From positions 1-59,582 of the forward strand of contig JACQCH010000014.1 in NCBI GenBank assembly GCA_016201735.1: a stretch of 59,582 nt of DNA, written 5' to 3'. The number at the start of each line of letters is the position of its first letter. Position 1 is the stretch's first letter. Made by a program: the position numbers and the translations under genes. Under the pieces are notes generated by a model that did no database searches, was not told the DNA's origin, and worked only from the letters and a program-made list of their open reading frames with translations. This DNA is from Candidatus Omnitrophota bacterium (GTDB lineage Bacteria; Omnitrophota; Gorgyraeia; 1-14-0-20-64-10). Of this stretch, positions 580 through 38,443 are shown in pieces.

Positions 580-3500
580 GACGGGGGCGCAGACCTTCAG
601 CGGTTCCGCGACGCAGACGGCAGGCGGGCTTCCCGCCGTGAACATCAACAAGGCCTCGGGGACGCTGACCTTAGCTGGGACGATCCGGACCAACCGAAAC
701 TGGACCCGCACGGCCGGGACGGTTGATCCAGGCACCAGCACCGTGGTGATCGTTCCAACGACGACCGCGGGTCAACCGCAGTGGACCGGCGCTTCTCTCT
801 ACAATGTCATCTTTGACAGCAACAGCTCCAGCGCAACGACCGTCGGAATCTTCGGATTGATGACGGTGGCTGGAGAGCTGAAGTTTGACAACTCCTCGAC
901 AGGCAATATCAAGATAAACACGTCAAGTATCCTTGCGCTGGGAAACATCACCGTGGCGGATACCGTCAGCTACGGCGCCGGGGACACCTCTCTCTACATT
1001 CAAGGAACGGGGAATCAGGTATTGACCGGGCCGGCAGGGGCGGCGGCGAACATTCTAAACATCTATATCTACAAACCCTCCGGCACGCTGTCGTTAGGAT
1101 CGAACATAAGTTTTGTGAGGGTAAGCCAGGGCTGGGACGTTCCCCAAGGAACGACGTTGGATTTGAACGGCTACACCTTCGCCGTTGGGGGGACCTTGTA
1201 CAACGAAGGCACGATCCTGGCCTCTGGGGCCGGATACCCAATCACCGCGGGAACCCTTACCTGCGCAAGCAATTCCCAGGTGACCTTCACCAGCAACTCG
1301 GCTGCCTCAACGGTCTATATCGCGTCGAACGGGAATTTCACTTACGGGAACCTGACGTTGAACAAGGCGGGGGCGACGTTCGGCACGAATGGTAATCCGA
1401 TCACGGTGTTTGGAAATTTTACCATTACGGCCGGGAATTTCGCGCCGGGAACGACGATGACCGTGGGAGGCAGCTGGTCCAACAGCGGGACCTTTGATGT
1501 AGGAGGGGGCTCAACGGTCATCTTGAACGGGACGAACCAAACCATCAGTGGAACCACCACCTTCCACACCCTGAAGAAGAGTGTGAGTGGAGTGGACGTT
1601 TTGACCTTTCCTGCGAATACAACCACAACGGTGGATACAGAGTTAAATCTCCAGGGGGTGGCCGGAGCGCCGCTGGCGATCCGTTCCTCAACCCCCGGGA
1701 CGCGGACGGGACTGAACCTGGTCGCCGACAGCACGCAGATGCTTCTTTACCTGGATGTGCAGGATTCGGATGCCTCGGCCGGCCAGCAGTTGATCGCGTA
1801 TAACTCGGCCAACTCCGGGAACAACCTCAACTGGTCGTTCCAGGCGCTGGATTTGAACGCGGGGTTGCTCAGCTACTGGAAGTTTGATAACGACGCCGGC
1901 GCCGACTCTGTTGGAACACGGAATGGGACGGTCAACGGAGCCGCCTTTACGACTTCAAAGGCACCGGCGACCTATGCCAACACGCATGCCCTTTCGTTCA
2001 ACGGGACGACCAACACGGTGACGGCTTCGGCAACGGGCCTTCCGGCGGCCAATGTCGCGCAGTCAATTGGAGTTTGGGCCAATCCCACCGCCACGGGAGG
2101 GGCGCTGGTTTCGGTCTGGAACTCGGGCTCATCTTCGGCTGTTTTCCTGTTCTCCGATGGAACGGTGAGAAATTTTGCCCGGGCGAATTTGGTTTCCACC
2201 AGCGCTCCGTCTACCGGCTCATGGCACTATTATGCCTATACCTTTGATGGGACGCTGCACAGGATTTACATTGATGGAGTCTTAGGTGCTCTCACGGCGA
2301 CGGCAGCGAACACCGCTTCTCCGGGGAATGTGGTGATTGGAAATACAGGGACCGGGGCCAGCGCTTTCTTTAACGGCTCCATTGACGATGTCCGGATCTA
2401 CAACCGGGCGCTGTCGCCGACGGAGGTGGCGTTGCTGGCGAAGGCCGCGGGGGTCAGCGGGACTGCGGTTCTGACGATGAAGAACCCGACGACCTTAAGC
2501 ACCACGATCACTAACACGCCGGCGGTGCGGGCCTATTTCACGAACGTGGAGGGGGGCGCTCAGTACGCCCTGTCCGATTCCATCACCAGCTTTGGAGCCA
2601 ACACGGCGGCCTCGGGGGCGGCCTTTGATGTGGCCTACACGCTTCCGGCCGGGGACGGAGCCAAACTGGTGTATGCCAAGATTACCAAGAGCGACAGCAC
2701 CAGCTATACGATTACGGGTAACCCGATCACGCTGGATGGGACGCCTCCGGCGGCCCCGACCAATCTGACCTTGACGGCCAACTCGGACAACACCGGGTTC
2801 ACGGCGGCGGTGACGGCGCCCAGCTCGAGCGACGTGACGAAACTGCACTGGCGGTACGCGGCGGCGGATGGGAACGTGGCGCCGACGTACCCGGCATCTA
2901 ATATTGCGGGAACGGCGCTGGGGACCGGGGTGACGACCGGGGTGACGGCCAGTTCCGCGCAGTCGATCACGGTGACCGGGATGACGCAGCTTAAGACGTA
3001 CGGGGTGCGGGTCTGGGCGGAGGACACGGCAGGGAACGTGAGCACCTTGAACGCCCAGCAATCCCTGTACCTGTCTCCTCCGACGCCGCGGCTGGTGGTG
3101 AGTGGGCCTTCGAGCGCGGTCTCGGCGCAGGCGGGGAGTGCGGCCACCTTGACGATCACGGCGAAGGACGCGAACGGGTCGGTGATTTCGACTTATACCG
3201 GACCCTATACCTTGACGTGGACGCCGACGGGCGGGGCCGCGCAGACGCTGGTGAGCGCTTCGACGGCCGGCTTTTCTGCGGGCGCCACCACGGCCTCGGT
3301 GACGATCGGCGGGGCGGACGCGGGGACCGAGACGTTCACGGCGACGGATGAGTCGGGGAGCGCCTTGACAAGCGGGACGTTGAGTTTCACCTTTTATCCG
3401 GCTTCGTTCACGGTGGTGGCGGACGCGGCAGGGCAGACGGCTGGGAAGCCCTTTACGCTGACGGTGACGGCGAAGGACGCGGCGGGTGCGACGGTGACGC

Positions 3501-5566
3501 GGTACGCGGGGACGGTGGGGTTGAGCTTGACGGCGACTCCGACGGCGACGAAGGGGTTGAGCGCTGCGGCGGTGACCGCCACCGCAGGGGTGGGGACCAT
3601 TTCCTTAGGATACCCCGATTGTGCCTCGAGCGCGACGATCACGGCGGCGGACACGACCTATGTGACGGGGGTGACGATCCAGGGGACCACGACGGCCCTT
3701 ACCTTCAGTCCGTTGAAGTTCAGGGTGATTGCGGGGATTCCGCCTTCTCCCCGGCCGGTTTTCTACACCGGCGAGAAGTTTGGAGTGGGAGTGGCGGCCC
3801 TGGCCAATGACGGGATCACTGTGACGCCCAATTATCGCGGGACGGTGGCCTTTACGGCGGTGACGGGGCTTTCGCTTCCGGGGAACTACACCTTCACGGC
3901 GGCGGACGCGGGGCTGCATGACTTCACCGATAGCTATGCCTCCGCGGCGGGCAGCTACGTGGTGACGGTTTCCGATGCGGCGGCTGCGGCAGTGGGGGGA
4001 ACGACGGATCCGACCAAGCCGATCAAGGTGGTGCAGGCGAAGGTGTTGGTGTCGAATGTGGACGGGCCGGTGGGGATATTGTATATTCCGATTCGGATTG
4101 TAGACGCACTGGGGGCGGTGATTCCGGACGACACGACGACCTTCACGGCGGCGCTGACGGAGGAGAAGGCGGACAACACCGCCGTGGCCACGACACCGTC
4201 GGTGAGGTTTCACGCGGGTTATGCGGCTGTTTCAGTGAGCGATTCGGCGGCTGAGAAGGTGACGGTGAAAGGATCCACGACCCCGGTGACCTTGGAGGTG
4301 AATTTTGGGGTGGCGACGTTTGGATCCACCAGCACCACCTCGACAACCGCTTTCACGCCGAACACGCTTTACATCAGCGGGGGTTATACGGCCGGGTACA
4401 GTTATACGTTTCCGACGGGGACTACTTACACGACTCCGGCGGCGGCGGCCTACACGACAACGACCGCGGCTCCGTTGACCCAGCAGTATCCAGGGACGAC
4501 CTACGCGGCTCCGACGAGGTACGATACCGGGGTAACCAGTGGGTTGGCAGGTCTTCAGCAATATACAGGGTATATTGCTCCGAGCGGTTCTGCCGGCTAC
4601 ACCGGTTTAACCGGTGCCACCGGTTTGACCGGTACCACCGGTTTGACCGGCTACACGGCTCCGGCCGGTTCTGCTGGATTTATGGGACTGTTTTCTCCAA
4701 CAACCGGTTCGACCGGTTTAACCGGTTCCACTGGATCCGCCAGTTCTCCCAGTACGTCTTGGAGTCCGGCAGCGTTTCAGGCGGCCACGAGCGGTCTGCC
4801 GCCGAGCGTTGCGGCAAGCATGCAGTCATACTTTAGCAACGCCAACAACCCGACGGCGATGCCCAGTTTTGTGTATGCTCCGTCGAGTGGGATGCCGCAG
4901 GGATCTACGACCTCCTCTGGTGCTGGAGGAGGTTGGAGTCTGGGTCCGATGATGGGCGGCAGCAAAGGGATGACTTTTGGGCCGGTGGGGATGAGCACGG
5001 CAGGTTCGGCCGGTTCGGCGCCCAGTTTTGGGAACTTTGGGGGGTGGGGGTCCGCGTCGGCCAGCTCCGGCGGTTCGACTGGGTCGGGCGCTGGCGCGGG
5101 AAATTGGATGAGCGGGCCGGCAGGATCGACCGGTATGACCGGTCCAGCCGGTGTGACCGGTCCAGCCGGTGTGACCGGTTCGACCGGAGGGTTCACACCG
5201 GATGCGGGGTTGAACGCGCCGGGGATGCTGCCAACGTGGATGACACAAACTGGGCCAGGGGGGCAAGCGGCCGGAGTGCTTCCGCCTGGAATGGAGGGAT
5301 CTTCCGGAGCGTTCATGAACCAGATGCCCGGAGGAGATTCCATGGGGATGCCGATGGACGCGGGCGGCGGGCAGGGGTGGATGGGCGGCTTCAGCCCGCA
5401 GGGGAACTTTGGACCTGGGATGTTCGGCAACGCCGGCGGCCAGGGCCAGCAGGGCGGGGAAGGGAAGAAAGAAGAGAAACAAAAGGGAGAGCCGGACTCT
5501 TCTGGAAAGCAGAGCGCTTCCCCGGGAACCGCCTCCGACAACAGCCAGGGGAGTGTGACAAACTAA
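1..5566 (+). CDS. Giant secreted/surface protein, 5'-partial: T/G/N-rich repeats, LamG-like domain, FN3/Ig-like repeats, G/S/T/M-rich low-complexity tail; frameshifted at about 571-584
   Basis: Frame 1 (1-579) and frame 2 (578-5566) encode the same repeat (GTGxQTFxGSATQT..[17 protein letters not shown].RNWT). LamG motifs YWKFDN and [16 protein letters not shown] at about 1870-2420; [11 protein letters not shown]...[13 protein letters not shown] is FN3-like. Confidence 0.75.
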
Positions 5567-8539: not shown

Positions 8540-9337
8540 GTGATGCTGGCGCATGAGGCGGCAGGCACAGGGATTCCCGTCGTGCTGATCCACGCCTTTC
8601 CCCTCTCCCATGGGATGTGGAAGGATTCCATCGAGAGTTTAAGCCGGCCGGCCGGCTTAAGGCGGATGGCCCGGGTGATCGCTCCAGATCTGCCGGGGTT
8701 CGGCGGCTCCGCCCGGCAGGGAGAGCCGTCGATCCCTCAGATGGCGCAGGAGATCGCAGGACTCTTGGACCATCTGAAGGTGGAGGAACCGGCGGTGGTG
8801 GCGGGACTCTCCATGGGAGGATACGTGGCCTTTGAGTTTCTCCGCCAGTTTCCTGGACGAGTCAGGGGGCTGGGTCTGTTTTCAACTCGGGCGGCGGCCG
8901 ACGCCCCCGAGGCACGGCAGGGAAGGTTAAAGGCCGCCCAGAAGATCCAGGGCGAGGGACTGGAACCGTTCGTCAAAGCAATCCTTCCGAAACTGCTTGG
9001 CAAAACAACCGTGGAATCCAATCCGGCCGTCGTCGAGGAAGTCACCGGGATGATCCTGGCCAATGTCCCCGACGGGGTGGCGGATGCGCTCCTGGCGATG
9101 GCCCATCGGCGGGACTCCACGGATCTGCTGGCTTCCATCCGGTGTCCTACCCTGGTGATCGCCGGGGAGGAGGATACCTTTATCCCAGTTTCCGAGGCGC
9201 GGGCGTTTGTCCGGAAGATTCCGGGAGCGGAGCTTGAGGTGATCCGGAAGGCCGGCCACTTGGTAAATCTGGAGGAGCCGGCCGGTTTCCAAGCGGCCCT
9301 GGAACGATTCCTGAAAGATAAAATTCTTGTTGGGTGA
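8540..9337 (+). CDS. Alpha/beta hydrolase (PcaD-like)
   Basis: LIHAFP, PDLPGFG, GLSMGG nucleophile elbow, GEED, AGHL. Confidence 0.9.
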   Translation: MMLAHEAAGTGIPVVLIHAFPLSHGMWKDSIESLSRPAGLRRMARVIAPDLPGFGGSARQGEPSIPQMAQEIAGLLDHLKVEEPAVVAGLSMGGYVAFEFLRQFPGRVRGLGLFSTRAAADAPEARQGRLKAAQKIQGEGLEPFVKAILPKLLGKTTVESNPAVVEEVTGMILANVPDGVADALLAMAHRRDSTDLLASIRCPTLVIAGEEDTFIPVSEARAFVRKIPGAELEVIRKAGHLVNLEEPAGFQAALERFLKDKILVG

Positions 9338-10575: not shown

Positions 10576-11745
10576 GTGAAGATACTTCAGATCACCTCTC
10601 ACCTGAACGTTGGGGGGATCACCCGATACATTCTGGCCCTGTCCAAACAGCTCTTGGCCCGGGGCCATCAGGTCGTCATCGCCTCGGGGGGTGGGGAGTT
10701 GGAGCTCCAAGTGCGGGAGATGGGAATCGAACATTGGCGGGTTCCCTTTAAGACAAGCGCGGAGTTCAGTCCGCAGGTTTTCTGGGGGATCCGGGAACTG
10801 GCGGCCCGCTTAGGCGTTGAGCCGGCCAGCCGGTCTGAACCGGTGGATTTGATCCATGCCCACACCCGGGTCGGCCAAGTGGTGGCGGCCCGGATCTCCC
10901 GCCGGTTGAACATCCCCTATGTGACGACCTGGCACGGAATTTACAAGCGGAGATTAAGCAGGAAATTATGGCCCTGCACGGGAAGGATGACGATCGCCAT
11001 CAGCGGCCCCGTCCGCCAACATCTCCAGGAATATTTTCAGATTCCGGAGGAACGGATTCGCTGCATCTACAATGGGATTGACACGGCCCATTATGCTTCG
11101 GCTCCAGATCCCTCAGCGGTGGAGAGGTACCGGGAGAGCCATCAAATCCCGGCAGGTCGGCCGGTCATTGGAGGAATCGGCCGGCTGGCCGCGGGCCGGG
11201 TGAAAGGTTTTGACTCCCTTTTAGTGAGTGCCCACTTGTTAAAGAAGACCTTCCCGGATATCCAGGTCTTGATCGTCGGAGATGGACCGCGGCGGCCATT
11301 TCTTGAGGATGTGGCCAGACGCCTTGGGGTTCGGGACCAGGTCCGTTTTTTGGGGGCTTCCGGGGATGTCCGGCTGCCGCTGGCCCTCATGGATGTCTTT
11401 ATTTTTTCGTCCCGCTGGCCGGAGGCGTTTGGCCTGACCCTGGTGGAGGCGATGGCGGCGGCCAAACCGGTGGTGGCGACAAAGGTGGGAGCGGTTCCGG
11501 AGATTGTCGAACATAACGTGAGCGGATGGCTGGTCCCTGTTGAGGATCCAGATTCGTTGGCCCAGGGGATCGCCCGATTGCTGAGGGACCGAGCCACCGC
11601 CTCCAGATTGGGGCGCGCCGCCCAGATCCGGGCGCGAGAGATGTTCAGTGTCGACCGGATGGTTTCGGAGATAGAACAGGTTTATCGGGAGGTATGTGTC
11701 CCCTTGGTACCGGGTACCGGGGGGACACGTACGGCGATTTCGTAG
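10576..11745 (+). CDS. GT4-family glycosyltransferase
   Basis: KILQI....GG, IHAH, IYNGID, EAFGLTLVEAMA...PVVAT.VG; GTG start at 10576. Confidence 0.9.
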   Translation: MKILQITSHLNVGGITRYILALSKQLLARGHQVVIASGGGELELQVREMGIEHWRVPFKTSAEFSPQVFWGIRELAARLGVEPASRSEPVDLIHAHTRVGQVVAARISRRLNIPYVTTWHGIYKRRLSRKLWPCTGRMTIAISGPVRQHLQEYFQIPEERIRCIYNGIDTAHYASAPDPSAVERYRESHQIPAGRPVIGGIGRLAAGRVKGFDSLLVSAHLLKKTFPDIQVLIVGDGPRRPFLEDVARRLGVRDQVRFLGASGDVRLPLALMDVFIFSSRWPEAFGLTLVEAMAAAKPVVATKVGAVPEIVEHNVSGWLVPVEDPDSLAQGIARLLRDRATASRLGRAAQIRAREMFSVDRMVSEIEQVYREVCVPLVPGTGGTRTAIS

Positions 11746-13450: not shown

Positions 13451-14620
13451 ATGGAGATATTGCAGAGAAAGCTCAATCTGCGTTTGCCCAAGGGCCGGTC
13501 GGCGTTTCTGTGGGGGGCCCGCAAGACCGGGAAAACCACGTACCTTAAAGAAAAATTTCCCAACAGTCTTGTCTACGATTTTCTAAAGACCGACCTGTTC
13601 GTGGAGCTCTCGAAAAATCCCTCCCTGTTTCGAGAACAGCTTCTGGCCAAAGAACCCCGCTCGCTTCAGAAGCCCATACTCTTGGACGAGGTGCAAAAGG
13701 TTCCTCAAATTTTGGATGAGGTCCATTGGCTCATTGAAAATAAAGGTCTGCAGTTCATCTTATGCGGTTCCAGCGCGCGGAAATTGAAAAGAGGCCACGC
13801 CAATCTGCTGGGAGGGAGGGCTTGGCGCTATGAGATGTTCCCGCTGGTCAGCGCCGAGATCGAGCGGGTGGATCTTTTAAGAGCTCTCAACCACGGCTTG
13901 ATTCCAAGCCATTACCTCCAAGAAGGCCATCGAAAATCTTTGAAGGCGTACGTTCAGGATTACCTCAAAGAGGAGGTTTTCGCCGAAGGATTAACGCGTA
14001 ATATCCCGGCTTTCTCCAGATTCTTCGATGCCATGGGATATTCCCATGGCATGCTTACCAATTATTCCAACATCGCACGGGATTGCGGAGTGGACGCCAA
14101 AACGGTGCGGGAATATTACCAGATTCTGGTAGACACTCTGTTGGGCACGATGGTCGAACCTTTCAAAAAGAGGCAGCATCGGCAAGTGATCGGTAAGGCA
14201 TCCAAATTTTATCTGTTTGATGTGGGCGTTGCCGGCGTCCTCACCCAGCGGCATCTCGAAGAGGAACGGGGAGAGGCCTTCGGGAAGGCGTTTGAACATT
14301 TTCTTCTGATGGAACTGATCGCCTACCGTTCTTACACCGAGTCGGATTTCTCCATCCACTTCTGGAGGACGAAATCGGGATTGGAGGTGGATTTCATCCT
14401 TGGAGCCGGGGAAGTGGCATTGGAGGTCAAGGGAACCTCCCGAGTGAACTCGAGCGATTTAAGGCCCTTGAAGGCGTTTGTAGAAGAACATCGACCCGCC
14501 AAGGCTTTGGTGGTCTGCAACGAGAAGGCCGCCCGGGTGACGGATAAGATCCGGATCCTTCCCTGGAGAGATTTTCTTTCCGATCTCTGGGAGGGGAAGA
14601 TCATGAAGAAAGGTGTTTAA
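13451..14620 (+). CDS. AAA+ ATPase (AAA_14 + DUF4143) with C-terminal PD-(D/E)XK-like motif
   Basis: GARKTGKT, LLDEVQ, CGSSAR, LGGRA, KFYLFDVG, FWRT..G.EVDF, EVK. Confidence 0.88.
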   Translation: MEILQRKLNLRLPKGRSAFLWGARKTGKTTYLKEKFPNSLVYDFLKTDLFVELSKNPSLFREQLLAKEPRSLQKPILLDEVQKVPQILDEVHWLIENKGLQFILCGSSARKLKRGHANLLGGRAWRYEMFPLVSAEIERVDLLRALNHGLIPSHYLQEGHRKSLKAYVQDYLKEEVFAEGLTRNIPAFSRFFDAMGYSHGMLTNYSNIARDCGVDAKTVREYYQILVDTLLGTMVEPFKKRQHRQVIGKASKFYLFDVGVAGVLTQRHLEEERGEAFGKAFEHFLLMELIAYRSYTESDFSIHFWRTKSGLEVDFILGAGEVALEVKGTSRVNSSDLRPLKAFVEEHRPAKALVVCNEKAARVTDKIRILPWRDFLSDLWEGKIMKKGV

Positions 14621-15849
14621 GTGCGGGGAAGAAAGAGGCCGAGGGAAGAGGTGAATCCATGGAGGAACAGGCGGCCTCCGATCGGCCCGATCTCTCCGTT
14701 GCAGAAGAAGCCGGCGATTGGGACCGGCTTGCCGGTTTGAACCGGCCCGCCGGAAGGAGCCGTTTCCCCGAGGCAGGATTGGATCGTCCGGATGTCGTGG
14801 TGCGGCTCTCCGTAAAGATCCCGCCCCCGTCCTAAACAGCTGAACAAGAGCCCCCCGGCGGGGGGTCTTTTCAGCGATTTCGAATGTTCCTCAAGCAGGC
14901 GGCGCAGATCCTCGCGGGCGGTATCTCCATCCCGCAATTGGAACTGCACCGTCTGCCCGACTTGGATCCGGTCGCCGATGAACAGGGCGCCCGATGCCGG
15001 GTCAAGCCCGACCAGGTTGCGGATCAGGAAATCTCCCCGGCGGAAGGTCTCTTTTTGTTCGTTCATGACGACCCCCAGGAACAGGGCCCGGCGGGCGAGG
15101 GCCTGATCGGGGGCGGGGAGACTGGCGAAAAGTTTCTGCAGAACTTTCGTCGTGGGGAGACCGGCCAATTCCAGGATCGCGTTGTCCTGGGCCTTGGTGA
15201 CGATGGCGGGGCGGCCGATGGGCCGGCAGCCCTGGGAGACGATCGTTTGAAGCTGGATATCCCCGGTTAGAAGGGTTCCCACCGCTCCTTCGGTGATGAC
15301 CTGGTCGTTCAGGAACAGAGCGGTGCTGCCGGGGGAGTCTCCCCCGCTGGCGAGGCCGCCGACGAGCGGCATCTTTGGATAGCTTTGATTCAGACCTCCC
15401 AACAGAGAGAGGGAGTCGCAGGAGAATGGATCGGGCAGAAGGATTCCGGCCGGTTCCTCGGCGGGCAAGCAGCCCAGTTTCTCGATCCAGAAGCCGGGGC
15501 CGCGGGGTTCCTCCAGATCTTCCGGCGAAACGGTGAACGGATACAGTTCCACCCGGGGCAGGTGGGCCGCGGCGAGTGACAGGGCGGGAGTAAATTCCAG
15601 CTCCTGGTCCCCGCCGAGGATCCCGCCGCCGGTGCAGCCGAGCAGAAGAGGATTTCCCAGTTCCTGACGGATCTTTCGGAGGATCGGTTCCCAGTCGGTT
15701 TTGTAGGAGGCCGAGACGAACAGGAATGCGGCGTGGGCGGGAGCTCCGCCGAGCTGGCCGGCGACGGCCTTAAGGACCGATTCCGCGGCGGCGGCCGGAT
15801 TTTTTTCGTCGGTGATCGACGAGGCGAAACGGATCGAATCGGGGATCAC
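14617..15849 (-). CDS. FIST N/C-domain protein
   Basis: GCTGGG, DPF, GGLASG, VSQGCRPIG, FSCLGRG, GFFCNGEIGP, LHGFT. Confidence 0.88.
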   Translation of the reverse strand: MIPDSIRFASSITDEKNPAAAAESVLKAVAGQLGGAPAHAAFLFVSASYKTDWEPILRKIRQELGNPLLLGCTGGGILGGDQELEFTPALSLAAAHLPRVELYPFTVSPEDLEEPRGPGFWIEKLGCLPAEEPAGILLPDPFSCDSLSLLGGLNQSYPKMPLVGGLASGGDSPGSTALFLNDQVITEGAVGTLLTGDIQLQTIVSQGCRPIGRPAIVTKAQDNAILELAGLPTTKVLQKLFASLPAPDQALARRALFLGVVMNEQKETFRRGDFLIRNLVGLDPASGALFIGDRIQVGQTVQFQLRDGDTAREDLRRLLEEHSKSLKRPPAGGLLFSCLGRGRDLYGEPHHDIRTIQSCLGETAPSGGPVQTGKPVPIAGFFCNGEIGPIGGRLFLHGFTSSLGLFLPRT

Positions 15850-24600: not shown

Positions 24601-24741
24601 ATTCCGATGGCGATGACCGTGATCGGCGGGATGACCCTCTCAACCCTTCTCACCCTCTTTGTTGTCCCCTGCGCCTACAGTCTCTTCTCCCGCCTCGAGC
24701 GCAAGAAATACCAGGGAGAAACTACTTCGGCTGGGATCTGA
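21634..24741 (+). CDS. RND efflux permease (AcrB/AcrD/AcrF family)
   Basis: SIKNPVFA, AIGIVVDDAI..LENI, GIVKKNSILLVDF, RLRPILMT; ATGA-coupled. Confidence 0.95.
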   Translation: MTLSDLSIKNPVFAWMLMAGLILFGIIGFNQMGVSQMPDVEFPVINVQLTWEGAAPEVIESDVVDIVEDAIMSVQGIRDISSTSRQGSASVTIEFDLNRDIDVAVQEVQTKIAQAQRRLPNDIDPPIVSKVNPQDNPILWLGVSGDIPKKELIEYVQNHLRDKFQTISGVGEVMLGGFVEPNLRVWLDAEKLEALQLTVDDVIGAIQKEHAEMPAGRIETGKEEFNVRAMGEAASVEEFGNIIIARRGGQPVYKPIYLKDVASVEDGLADIRRIARIGGKTSVGIGIKKQRGANEVTVAHNVLKKMEEVKKQLPKGIEIGVNFDRTRFVEDSIRELTFTLILSAILTSIVCWLFLGSWSATLNILMAIPTSIIGTFIAMFFFHFTLNTFTLLGLSLAIGIVVDDAIMVLENIVRYQENGLDRVEAARVGARQITFAAFAATLAIIAIFLPVAFMQGIIGKFFFEFGVTISIAVALSLLEALTLAPMRCAQFLQVGERLGPMGRAVDAGFHGLSRAYRAALGWCLNHRRLVVLVSLILFFGSIFGVTPRLRREFVPPQDQSMFLCRLQAPVGSSIEFTDERFKQAEAFAMSRPEIRRYFGAIGGFGGGEVNTGMLFMTLKPPRERPLVPPNKKPLTQLELMNLFRKELNKIPDIRARIQDLSLSGLSAQRGFPIEMTIQGTDWEQLAATSKKIQEQMEKSPLLVDVDTDYLEGVREVRVIPNRKAAADRAVSVETIAHTVNAMIGGERVAKYTRGGRRYDVRVRLIPAQRTQSQDIEKLWVWNNRGEMVQLKDLVTISEKPSYLSITRKGRERAISIFANVAPGKSQAIALEEAERIAKGVLPEGYHVVFGGSSQTFKESFQSLLFALWLGIAVAYMVLGSQYNSYLHPVTVLLALPFSVTGAFIALWLANQSLNIYSYIGLILLMGIVKKNSILLVDFTNQLRRQGKGVKEALLEACPIRLRPILMTSISTIAAAVPPAMALGPGAETRIPMAMTVIGGMTLSTLLTLFVVPCAYSLFSRLERKKYQGETTSAGI

Positions 24742-25771
24742 TTTCCTGGATCGCTTTCTTCATCCGGAGGAGCCGTTCGGGGGAGGTCGGGTGGGTGTTG
24801 AAGAAGGAGTGGGAGATCGACTGGGGAAGCTCGGTCGCGAACCGGTCCCAGAAATCGACACCCGCTTCGATCCGGTAGCCGGCCCGGTAGGCGTATTTCA
24901 AGCCGACGTAGTCCGCCTCCCGTTCGAAATCCTGCGAGAAGGGAGCTTGAACCCCGGCCGATGCGGCTTGGCCGATTGTTCCGCCAACTCCGGGCAGGAC
25001 AATGTCGATGGCTCCTCCGATGATGTTCCCAAGAAGCCCTGAGACAATACCGGTCCCCATCCCTTTGGCGATGTGCCCTTTGGTCAAGTGGGCCAGCTCA
25101 TGCGCCATCACGACGGCCAGCTCATCATCGGAAACAATGAAGCGAAGCAGGCCGGTGGTTACCACGATCTGCCCGGGGCCCGCGTAGGCGTTCACCTGGG
25201 GGTCGTCCTCTACTTGAAAATGGACCGGATACCGTTTGGATTCGACGGTAAGAGTCCGCTCAAAGCGGACCCCTTCCCGTTCCAGGAGAAGGGAGACGGA
25301 ATCGTTGGGTTTGAACCGGCCAGCCGGTTTGAGCCGGCGAAAGGCGTTGACCGCCTGGTTGACCGAAGGAGTTTCTTTCTCTCCGACCCGAAGCAGGAGA
25401 TCCCCGGGTTTCAATCCGGCTTTGGATGACGGACCGTTGGGGATGACCCCGACAACCAGACAGCCCCTTTTGGATTTGTGATCGGATTCAATCCCGGAGA
25501 CGCCGAAGACCCGGCCGGAGGTCAGCGTCAGATCATCCAGAAGGACTCCGATGTTTGGCTGAGGGTTGCCCGGCTGGATTTCCTGGGGAGGGAGAGCCGC
25601 CACGATCTGCTCGCCGACGATCCGGACCCGGAGCGTCTGATCATAAACGTGCCGCAGGGATTTGACCTGGTAAAATTCCTGGGCCGATTTCACCTCCCCT
25701 TGGTCGATCGGAGCGACGGTGGCGCATCCGGCCAGAAGAAGAGTTGTCATTCCCACGGCTAATTTGGACAT
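24722..25771 (-). CDS. PDZ + M48 metallopeptidase lipoprotein, in frame with mutY
   Basis: Lipobox MSKLAVGMTTLLLAGC, PDZ (SKAGLKPGD), VNAYA, HELAH, EREAD, THP...R. Confidence 0.75.
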   Translation of the reverse strand: MSKLAVGMTTLLLAGCATVAPIDQGEVKSAQEFYQVKSLRHVYDQTLRVRIVGEQIVAALPPQEIQPGNPQPNIGVLLDDLTLTSGRVFGVSGIESDHKSKRGCLVVGVIPNGPSSKAGLKPGDLLLRVGEKETPSVNQAVNAFRRLKPAGRFKPNDSVSLLLEREGVRFERTLTVESKRYPVHFQVEDDPQVNAYAGPGQIVVTTGLLRFIVSDDELAVVMAHELAHLTKGHIAKGMGTGIVSGLLGNIIGGAIDIVLPGVGGTIGQAASAGVQAPFSQDFEREADYVGLKYAYRAGYRIEAGVDFWDRFATELPQSISHSFFNTHPTSPERLLRMKKAIQEIRSQPK

Positions 25772-26797
25772 TCCAGCAGTGAATGCGACTTGGTCCAGTT
25801 TATCCTTGGGAATCCATCGACTCTCTGTATACCAACGGGGGCGGATCCCTCCGCTCCTGCGTCGGCACGCGAAGGCCCGGATCTCCAATTCCCGATGAGA
25901 AAGGGTCTGCCGGATTCGCGCCTTAAATTCTCCCGGTATCACATCGATTCCCAGCCGTTCCCGGAAATTCCGTGTGAGACTTTCGGACTCCGTTTCCTTC
26001 GGTTTTCTCTCCCCGCCGGGGAATTCCCACAAGCCCGGGAGTAGGCCCGACATCGGCCGGCGGGCAAGGAGAACGGCTTCGTTGTCCTCGAGAATTCCGC
26101 ACAGATACCGGATCCTCTTTCTCTCCGGAGTCAGGCGGGGAGGGGGGATTTTTTCTTGAAGCCCCAATTTCCTCGCCCGGCATCCGGAACGGATGGGGCA
26201 GGCCGGGCAGGCGGGGGCGCGGGGTGTGCAGACCAAAGCTCCCAGCTCCATCATCGCCTGATTGAAATCGCCCGGATTCTCCGACGGGACAAGCCGCTGG
26301 GAAAGTTCCCACAGTTTCTTCTGAGTCGGGGCCTCCCGCGGATCCTGCCGGATGCCGAAATACCGGCAGAGAACCCGGATCACATTGCCGTCTAAGATCG
26401 GAGCCGGGCGGTCGTACGCGATGGAGGCGACCGCCCCGGCAGTGTACCGCCCAATGCCGGGGAGTTTAAGAAGCTCACTCGTCTCTCGGGGCAGCCGGCC
26501 GTTGTGCCGGGAAACTATTTCCTGCGCCGCCGAATGGAGATTCTTGGCCCGGAAGTAATATCCAAGGCCCGACCAGGAATCCAGCACCGCCGTCAAGGGA
26601 GCTTTCGCCAGTGTCTCCACACTGGGAAACTTCTTTAGGAATTTCTGATAGTAAGGGATCACCGTCGAGACCTGGGTTTGCTGGAGCATTGTTTCCGAGA
26701 CCCAGATTCGGTAGGGGTCGCGGGTTTTCCTCCAGGGGAGATCCTTCCGGGCGTTTTTTTGGTACCAGGCCGACAGGTTCTTTTGGAAGAGGGTCAT
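25772..26797 (-). CDS. mutY: A/G-specific adenine glycosylase; no stop codon before the M48 region, so the boundary is approximate
   Basis: WVSETMLQQT, WSGLGYY, HhH LPGIGRYTAGA, DGNV.RV, Fe-S C-x6-C-x2-C-x5-C, NUDIX-like GLWEFPGG. Confidence 0.9.
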
Positions 26798-26803
26798 GGC
26801 CTC

Positions 26804-26833
26804 ATTATACAATAGGCCTCATGAGGCCTCATG
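26804..26833. promoter_or_regulatory. Overlapping divergent -10 boxes (TATAAT minus, TACAAT plus) followed by AGGCCTCATG x2
   Basis: Sequence between the mutY and LMF start codons. Confidence 0.55.
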
Positions 26834-37522: not shown

Positions 37523-38443
37523 TCAGGCGGGACGCAGGTTTTTGAGGACTTTTTCAGCGGAAACGGAACGGTTGAGGCAGTAGAAGTGGAGGCCGGGCAC
37601 CCCGGACCTCAGTAATTCCCCGCACATCCTCGTGGAAAGTTCAATTCCGTATTTCGCGGCTCCCTCGTCGTCGTTCTCGTATTTCACCAACTCCTTGGCG
37701 ACCGCCGGCGGGATCGTCGCCTTGCACAGGTCGGCGAAGCGCCGGACCTGAGAGACGGAAAGAATCGGCAGAATTCCCGGCACGACCGGCGCGGTGATTC
37801 CGGCCTTCTTGACGTGCCCCATGAATTCGAAGAAGTAAGCGTTGTCGAAGAAAAGCTGTGTGATGATGACGCAGCCGCCCGCCGAAACCTTCCTCTTTAA
37901 ATAAGCGATATCCGAGGCCCGGTCCTTCGCTTCGAAATGGACCTCCGGGAAGCCGGTCACCGCGATCGAGAACCAGGGATCCTTGCGGGCCTCCTCAATC
38001 AGCTCCACGGAGGAATGGAACCCGTCCGGATGCGGCTTGAACCGGCTGGCCGGTTCAAGCCGGCTGGCCGGTTTGAAGTCCGGCTGGTCCTTCGGCGGAT
38101 CCCCCCGCAGGGCAAGAAGGTTGTACACCCCCATCGCTTTTAGACGTTTCAGGTTTTCCAGGAGATCCTGTTTGGACTGGCCGATGATGTTCAAGTGGCA
38201 GGTGGTTTCGACCCCGGACTTATTTTTGAGCCGGTCGCACAGATCCAGGGTGAGGTCTCGAGTCGTTCCTCCCGCGCCGTAGGTCATCGAGAAGAAGGCC
38301 GGCTGGAATCGTTTGAGCCGCCCGACGGTCTCGAACAGTTTCTCAACGGCTTCCGGGGTTTTGGGAGGGAACAGCTCGAAGGAAATATCCGGTTTACCGG
38401 TCTGATCCGGCTTGCCGGATTTATAAAGCTGGTCCAATCTCAT
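37523..38443 (-). CDS. metF: 5,10-methylenetetrahydrofolate reductase
   Basis: SFELFPPKT, TYGAGG, LALRGDPP, PEVH, ITQLFFD, PGILP, GLHFYCLNR. Confidence 0.94.
   Translation of the reverse strand: MRLDQLYKSGKPDQTGKPDISFELFPPKTPEAVEKLFETVGRLKRFQPAFFSMTYGAGGTTRDLTLDLCDRLKNKSGVETTCHLNIIGQSKQDLLENLKRLKAMGVYNLLALRGDPPKDQPDFKPASRLEPASRFKPHPDGFHSSVELIEEARKDPWFSIAVTGFPEVHFEAKDRASDIAYLKRKVSAGGCVIITQLFFDNAYFFEFMGHVKKAGITAPVVPGILPILSVSQVRRFADLCKATIPPAVAKELVKYENDDEGAAKYGIELSTRMCGELLRSGVPGLHFYCLNRSVSAEKVLKNLRPA

Follow-up and report, generated by a model that had tools for sequence, protein, structure and literature searches.

An uncultured Omnitrophota bacterium from groundwater carries a dispersed, self-propagating micro-repeat of only 18 nt, present at about 20 unrelated loci of its genome. 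This repeat is real and lineage-restricted, and its dispersed copies include tandem arrays of two to three units. Each event adds exactly 18, 36 or 54 nt, and the unusual mark of the unit is this fixed quantum combined with a variable target resembling the unit itself. If this reading holds, it ranks among the smallest DNA units shown to disperse in a genome, and the dispersal occurs inside essential genes (metF, murG, dapF, holB and rarA) without breaking them. The window, i.e. the whole stretch of DNA analysed, comprises 59,582 nt of JACQCH010000014.1, from assembly GCA_016201735.1 (Candidatus Omnitrophota bacterium), and corresponds to contig C19 of the genome hereafter called G000 (1.81 Mb in 67 contigs, 58.5% GC, 95% complete).

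The 18-nt unit and its copies in the window

The unit is composed of a mini-hairpin, RCCGG-N4-CCGGY, and a YTYRAR spacer, with TYRA as the 4-nt flank. Re-reading the letters of the six sites located in the window placed this core between TTGA, TCAA, TTAA or CTGA in every case, so that the palindromes are as the original prediction described them, including the perfect one of 22 bp in the hydrolase gene. The regular expression proposed there is matched by the GT4 and PDZ sites and by positions 38037-38058 of metF. In the paired sites of the FIST gene and metF, the cores lie exactly 18 nt apart. Paired units of G000 are unlike each other, e.g. at 3 of 18 positions in metF, and in the TRF output for G000 the arrays of this family do not exceed 2.5 units; three identical, perfect units form arrays in two other genomes, G004 and G007. 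The tandem stacking that had been proposed is thus borne out by the G000 pairs and by these longer arrays.

According to folding calculations, the hairpins are stable as single-stranded DNA. A single unit reaches -3.4 to -8.6 kcal/mol (-8.5 kcal/mol at the hydrolase site), and the first metF pair folds between its two units into a DNA hairpin with a 15-bp stem (-16.8 kcal/mol, z -5.4). Identical 14-mers recur at unlinked G000 loci, ACCGGCCCGCCGGA being common to the FIST, C30 and rarA sites, and subfamilies are distinguished by their centre (CCAG, CAAG or CCCG). Nearly all of the approximately 20 G000 loci are inside long ORFs.

Table 1. Sites carrying the 18-nt unit, in the window and elsewhere in G000
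Gene or site	Gene position and strand	Insert position	Units	Remarks
alpha/beta-hydrolase	8540-9337, plus	8639-8660	one	perfect 22-bp palindrome; adds SRPAGL
GT4 glycosyltransferase	10579-11745, plus	10817-10838	one	adds PASRSE or VEPASR
FIST-domain gene	14617-15849, minus	14719-14758	two	within ETAPSGGPVQTGKPV
PDZ/M48 protease	24722-25771, minus	25311-25332	one	adds KPAGRF; 6-residue gap in 8/8 orthologues
metF (methylenetetrahydrofolate reductase)	37523-38443, minus		three inserted	intact; match to PDB 1v93, E 2e-66
metF, tandem units		38037-38076	two	residues 125-136 (ASRLEPASRFKP) of 306-aa MetF
metF, N-terminus		38384-38423	two	KSGKPDQTGKPD; one corresponds to native codons for SGKP(D/E)I, and the second is an extra 18 nt
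GH57a				+6 residues vs orthologues
GH57b				+6 residues vs orthologues
dapF				+6 residues vs orthologues
rarA				+6 residues vs orthologues
murG				+6 residues; +5 vs one orthologue
holB (locus L182)	G000:C12:12531-13874		two	+27 residues; two units plus 45 nt of another repeat
methyltransferase (MTase)				+5 residues, not +6

Alignment with 6 to 19 orthologues showed extra residues in G000 alone at all six window sites, namely +6, +6, +13, +6, +12 and +6 in order of position. The hydrolase insert corresponds to a 6-residue gap in 6/6 orthologues, and that of GT4 to a 6-residue gap in 10/10 homologues, two of them close. As for the FIST protein, it is 13 residues longer than 9 of the 11 orthologues and 12 residues longer than the other two, and the outer flanks of its insert are not TYRA. 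Residues 125-136 of MetF face a 12-residue gap in 19/19 orthologues and in the solved Thermus enzyme (PDB 1v93), while its N-terminal insert faces a 6-residue gap in the 16/16 orthologue rows that reach the region; at this second site, the native DNA of orthologues is already CCGG-N4-CCGG-like.

MetF retains 38 invariant columns, and its AlphaFold model (18 sequences) has a mean pLDDT of 87.5. The sole segment of the model with a pLDDT below 50 spans residues 115-134, a loop following the strand 108-112 and holding the 12-residue insert; the N-terminal insert precedes the first beta strand, with a pLDDT of 69 for residues 11-20. The suggestion that the hexapeptides sit in protein loops was checked on this MetF model, where it holds for the 12-residue insert.

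All three stop-free frames are used in translation, giving peptides of the NRPAGS, EPASRF and QTGKPV types. LSRPAGL is found in the hydrolase, EPASRS in GT4, KPAGRF in the PDZ protease and ASRLEPASRF in MetF, while QTGKP is shared by the FIST protein and the N-terminal insert of MetF. Conservation at the DNA level, with the motif read in different frames (SRPAGL, EPASRS, QTGKP), had been claimed, and the three frames are real. The hexapeptides might instead be under selection as parts of the proteins, for instance linkers or motifs, with the likeness of the DNA as a by-product: every copy does keep the frame, and the genes that carry the copies are intact. However, a single DNA sequence yields unrelated peptides from three frames, the host proteins are themselves unrelated, and the MetF insert has a pLDDT below 50 in the model. 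The use of three frames effectively excludes selection on the peptide, to which we attach almost no probability.

Two other features of the window were noted. One open frame of 697 codons (24722-26812, minus strand) runs without an intervening stop through both a MutY-like N-terminal part and the sequence of the PDZ/M48 protease, and three relatives have open frames of 714-812 codons at this position; these are either a fusion or abutting genes. The 1642-aa ORF at 638-5566 contains collagen-like Gly-X-Thr runs (4593-4656 and 5130-5187) made of 9-nt ACCGGTnnn repeats, which TRF reports with a period of 18 and which are distinct from the 18-nt palindromic unit.

Abundance and distribution among genomes

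CCGG-N4-CCGG occurs 23 times in the window vs. 6.46 expected, a count reached by none of 100 shuffles. The regular expression of the original prediction, for which a scan against a null model had been proposed, gives six strand matches at four loci of the window (mean of 0.02 in shuffles, six being reached by 0/100) and 16 matches across G000, compared with 0-2 in 12 fifth-order Markov simulations. In a search of 41 genomes with a related pattern, 19 matches were obtained in G000, 11 in G004 and 12 in G007, vs. 0-3 in each of the other 38; the 40 related genomes, of similar composition, served as an empirical null for the motif counts, and a reversed-pattern control gave 0-4 matches. Scanning G000 with a 22-nt consensus retrieved 26 sites with at most 5 mismatches, while the bulk of the 405 CCGG-N4-CCGG sites peaks at 9 mismatches. 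By reading of the consensus-scan list, about 20 loci are genuine.

Six of these approximately 20 loci fall inside 30 kb of the window (8639-38423), where about 0.35 would be expected, a figure given without a test since the stretch was chosen for its cluster. On the plus strand, the five orientable loci of this cluster all read YTGA regardless of the strand of the gene, which may reflect local spread or chance.

Outside the window, orthologue alignments at 6 of 8 tested G000 loci reveal an insert made of one or more six-residue steps (Table 1). No clean gap can be called at the C30 peptidase site, since the loop in which it lies is variable in length. The additional 45 nt of holB hold k-mers of another repeat family, of the CCGCACCACTTGTAA and CTAGCCGCAGCC types, which have 25-29 copies in the genome; in this composite insert, different mini-repeats have landed side by side. 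At G000:C41:20273-20523 (locus L191), a small lipoprotein gene and the DNA immediately before it carry two separate two-unit arrays, with 170 nt between them. Concerning G007, 3/3 tested sites bear inserts (+18, +6 and +6 residues) where G000 and the other genomes are empty, and its PDZ orthologue has its own pair of units at a position unlike that of G000. Since the inserts occupy different sites in each genome, the three genomes gained copies independently.

The carriers amount to 3 of the 20 genomes of the family, G004 and G007 belonging to related genera, and all three are incomplete metagenome-assembled genomes (MAGs). The metF tree (20 rows) is unresolved within the family, with 11 of 17 inner branches open, and therefore one origin and several origins of the three carriers are indistinguishable from it. 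Among genome contigs with one genome per species, a tandem-dimer pattern gave 12 stretches, seven of them in two MAG assemblies and five as single matches in other phyla, and it had no match in the viral contigs. A pattern with a CYRG centre gave 83 single matches in unrelated, mostly high-GC genomes, which is about chance level. One of the five single tandem-dimer matches lies in an unrelated high-GC MAG (L255:440-600), where at least four tandem near-identical 18-mers encode PVQAGQ in a proline-rich protein; this array may be fortuitous, or a unit of this kind may exist in a further phylum.

Four groundwater runs from one study contain the stretch, and their contigs, which span the insert sites of metF and the PDZ gene, show no indel there. 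No insertion polymorphism was thus seen in these runs at the level of contigs, the only data compared; rare variants are invisible in contigs, and the comparison therefore says nothing on the current activity of the unit.

Junctions, target sites and mode of spread

When the two 4-mers beside the palindrome are compared across the 14 single-unit sites, they agree at 43 of 56 positions and form perfect direct repeats in eight cases. The direct repeat at period 18 measures 4-10 nt, with a mean of about 7 (7 nt at the PDZ site), and the duplicated tract includes or adjoins a TYRA spacer at 14/14 sites. The five native bases past each 4-mer, which did not enter into the search pattern, also resemble the unit ends (81/140 positions vs. 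29% expected, p ~1e-12). The truly new bases number only 7-13 nt per site, although every insert measures 18 nt or a whole multiple of that length. In the two-unit inserts of metF, FIST and holB, the middle 4-mer is unlike the outer ones.

Recipient sites share about 4-10 nt with the unit, mostly a TTCAR-like spacer beside CCGG and sometimes subfamily-specific bases; the targets include TTCAA, TTCAG, TTTAA and TTAAG. The native targets, as seen in orthologues, look like half a unit, with TTCAAGCCG for metF, CTCAAGCCGG for the PDZ site, GAGCCGGTG for the GT4 site and GCCGGCTTGAAG for the GDPD gene of G007. At rarA, the orthologue-conserved native CCCGCCGGA is identical to 9 nt of the subfamily inserted there, including its unusual last base and loop bases.

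The original prediction took the inserts for a minimal mobile palindrome or transposon footprint, i.e. a cut-and-paste element of 14 bp (two 7-bp ends) with a fixed 4-bp TYRA duplication. The dispersed palindromic unit itself stands. The near-perfect 14-bp inverted repeat of the core and the 4-nt repeats counted above accord with the remainder of the model, and inverted-repeat ends with short flanking direct repeats recall MITEs and their footprints. However, at 4-10 nt the junction repeat has no constant length, similarity runs past the 4-mer, and a duplication or footprint of fixed 4-bp length does not fit such variable junctions. Unlike 4-mers within two-unit inserts and the non-TYRA outer flanks of FIST also stand against it, and perfect three-unit arrays would be hard to obtain by repeated insertion and excision. 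MITEs are described as 70-300 bp elements with terminal repeats of 15-30 bp and a fixed duplication (PMC3733652), whereas the 14-bp core has ends of only 7 bp and a variable repeat. As for a longer parent element with unit ends and a 4-bp duplication, the G000 search produced a single candidate that looks spurious; neither such a parent nor a duplication of fixed length, as a MITE or DDE origin would imply, was found in this assembly, which as a MAG may lack insertion sequences. We consider the fixed-duplication model quite improbable.

Dispersal could be dispensed with altogether if the inserts were independent local 18-bp tandem duplications, produced by slippage at CCGG-rich sites. At GH57a, the metF N-terminus, murG, rarA and the second GDPD site of G007, 8-14 nt of the unit pre-exist natively and are conserved in orthologues, the event at these sites resembling a duplication, and arrays of identical units exist, much as in in-frame minisatellites or VNTRs, which share tandem 18-nt arrays with perfect copies; copy number likely changes by slippage here too. 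VNTR units, though, derive from local sequence, whereas a single 18-nt unit has been seeded at unrelated loci, and it copies its native neighbourhood at only 4-5 sites and not overall. The dapF, GH57b, PDZ, hydrolase (hyd), MTase and C43 sites each contain 8-13 inserted bases that lack a local source and yet form the core found at the other loci. No CCGG was available for copying at the native sites of dapF and GH57b, and still both gained this common core, which a purely local duplication does not fit; identical 14-mers at unlinked loci, and 38 relatives of similar composition having the same native sites but no units, likewise oppose it. We judge this explanation very unlikely.

Three further models were rejected from the sequences. 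RCCGGY restriction followed by small-fragment ligation or fill-in duplication is at odds with the dapF and GH57b sites devoid of CCGG and with the register at metF. Snap-back or inverted local copying was discarded because reverse-complementing the flanks does not yield the bases that were inserted. Lastly, duplication of 18 bp of native sequence followed by drift was set aside, as only 1-4 of 8-13 positions past the junction repeat match in a hand comparison.

An enzymatic alternative is the single-strand mobilisation of a one-hairpin mini-element by an HUH/Y1 transposase of IS200/IS605 or RAYT type. The enzyme would cleave 3' of a TTCAR-like site, both in the target and at the end of the element itself, which would give the appearance of a short duplication, and landing next to an existing copy would generate arrays. 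The unit does consist of a hairpin and a 4-nt tail, head-to-tail tandem arrays exist, and the TTCAR-like targets resemble the penta- and tetranucleotides targeted by IS605, IS608 and ISDra2. Y1_Tnp (PF01797) genes are present in G004 (five) and G007 (three); no match was obtained in G000, whereas 11 motif-free relatives have one, and the 1.5-kb surroundings of all eight Y1 loci in G004 and G007 are free of the motif. The units have no GTAG or CGTC tag, and the likeness between target and unit reaches 9-10 nt, some of them loop bases (rarA), while we know of no HUH/Y1 enzyme that reads loop bases or a target similarity of this length. Orientation does not follow GC skew, with 8 loci each way by our own reading, although skew is a weak, unreliable guide in MAG contigs. 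On the coding strand, TCAR is the commoner form (about 11 to 4, also our own reading), close to the 3:2 expected from TGA avoidance. This enzymatic route appears unlikely to us.

The reverse transcriptase domain RVT_1 is absent from all three carriers and Ku from 20/20 family genomes, and the TnpB zinc-ribbon domain was detected in G000 and G001 only. In G000, the start of a contig (G000:C54:150-530) bears a truncated low-GC TnpB-like remnant, comprising the RuvC end and the zinc ribbon; no motif is nearby and the hairpin downstream differs from the 18-nt unit. The cognate TnpA/TnpB with a shared hairpin that a PATE-like IS200/IS605 element would have is thus lacking in G000, where no TnpA was found. 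Among Y1_Tnp, RVT_1, Ku and TnpB, no dedicated enzyme fits the unit.

The explanation we favour, tentatively and at somewhat less than even confidence, is homology-guided copying, in which resident copies serve as templates for full 18-nt periods; it agrees with most of the observations. A new copy would be primed on a resident one by a short match, through template switching or ectopic gap repair, and on a periodic donor the new strand would re-anneal in register after one or more full periods. Such an in-register return would make the insert a multiple of 18 nt and the apparent target duplication variable. The hairpin would favour stalling and dissociation of the polymerase, slippage or multi-period copying would produce the tandem arrays, and selection would retain only the in-frame, stop-free copies in surface loops. 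The fixed 18-nt quantum with its variable junction repeat separates the unit from classical transposition and points to copying of this kind.

Several observations count against homology-guided copying. The G000 assembly has no donor array above 2.5 units, and we know of no established bacterial pathway in which 7-11 nt of homology suffice to carry a repeat to a distant locus. The constant presence of TYRA at or beside the tract and the eight perfect 4-nt repeats also fit a site-specific cut, and the patchy distribution in the family would fit a transferable enzyme. Moreover, the carriers are incomplete, with G000 at 95%, and transposase genes are frequently missing from MAG assemblies.

A broader claim is that the unit is transposase-free mobile DNA, a periodic palindrome spreading as an 'infectious sequence' by host replication and repair alone; we regard it as possible but rather doubtful. 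Loci sharing about 7-11 nt with the unit would prime on a resident copy, copy full periods and return in register. If this is true, a lineage once seeded would keep gaining hexapeptides in its protein loops. Homology-guided copying would offer a route for the bulk gain of loop residues. In work on uncultured bacteria, such inserts inflate apparent divergence and lead to false 'lineage-specific loops' when proteins are aligned or their structures predicted, and they could be sharp phylogenetic markers for the carrier lineages.

Comparison with known repeat families

The unit belongs to neither the RPE nor the REP family, as the tests of size, tag, enzyme link and location fail. Rickettsia palindromic elements (RPEs; Ogata et al. 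2000, 2002) are, as summarised in PMC10969869, elements of about 100-150 bp with a family-specific conserved peptide. Like the 18-nt unit, they are described there as dispersed palindromes that lie in frame within unrelated housekeeping genes, are translated and accommodated by the protein fold, and have no known enzyme (PMC10969869). The in-frame palindrome in unrelated ORFs is common to both, whereas the RPE length and conserved peptide have no counterpart in the present repeat, which is only 18 nt long, is read in three frames, forms tandem arrays, has self-like targets and comes from an unrelated taxon with an unrelated sequence.

Nearest in size are the small dispersed repeats SDR4-6 of the cyanobacterium Nostoc, 21-27 nt hairpin repeats which, in the work of Elhai et al. 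in 2008, reportedly act as mobile DNA with no known enzyme; the phylum and the sequence of these repeats differ from ours.

REPs are portrayed, in PMC3733652 and PMC3116915, as 20-40 bp repeats with a GTAG or CGTC tag, mostly extragenic, the GTAG class flanking a RAYT gene. Intragenic REPs and REPIN/RAYT systems resemble the unit as short GC-rich hairpins, sometimes intragenic and often paired, and the metF pair folds in this manner. Unlike REPs and REPINs, the 18-nt units are flanked by TYRA with no tag, almost all of their copies are intragenic, and no flanked Y1 or RAYT gene is linked to them. The unit works as RPEs and intragenic REPs do, all of them being selfish-type palindromic DNA that housekeeping genes tolerate in frame.

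The literature search, which did not extend to supplements, returned work on RPEs, REPs and MITEs but no 18-nt in-frame palindrome family and no Omnitrophota case. G000 also harbours a different GC-rich hairpin repeat, much more abundant, with a core of the ACCCCGCCCCTCCGGAGGGGCGGGGT type whose 12-mers occur about 130 times.
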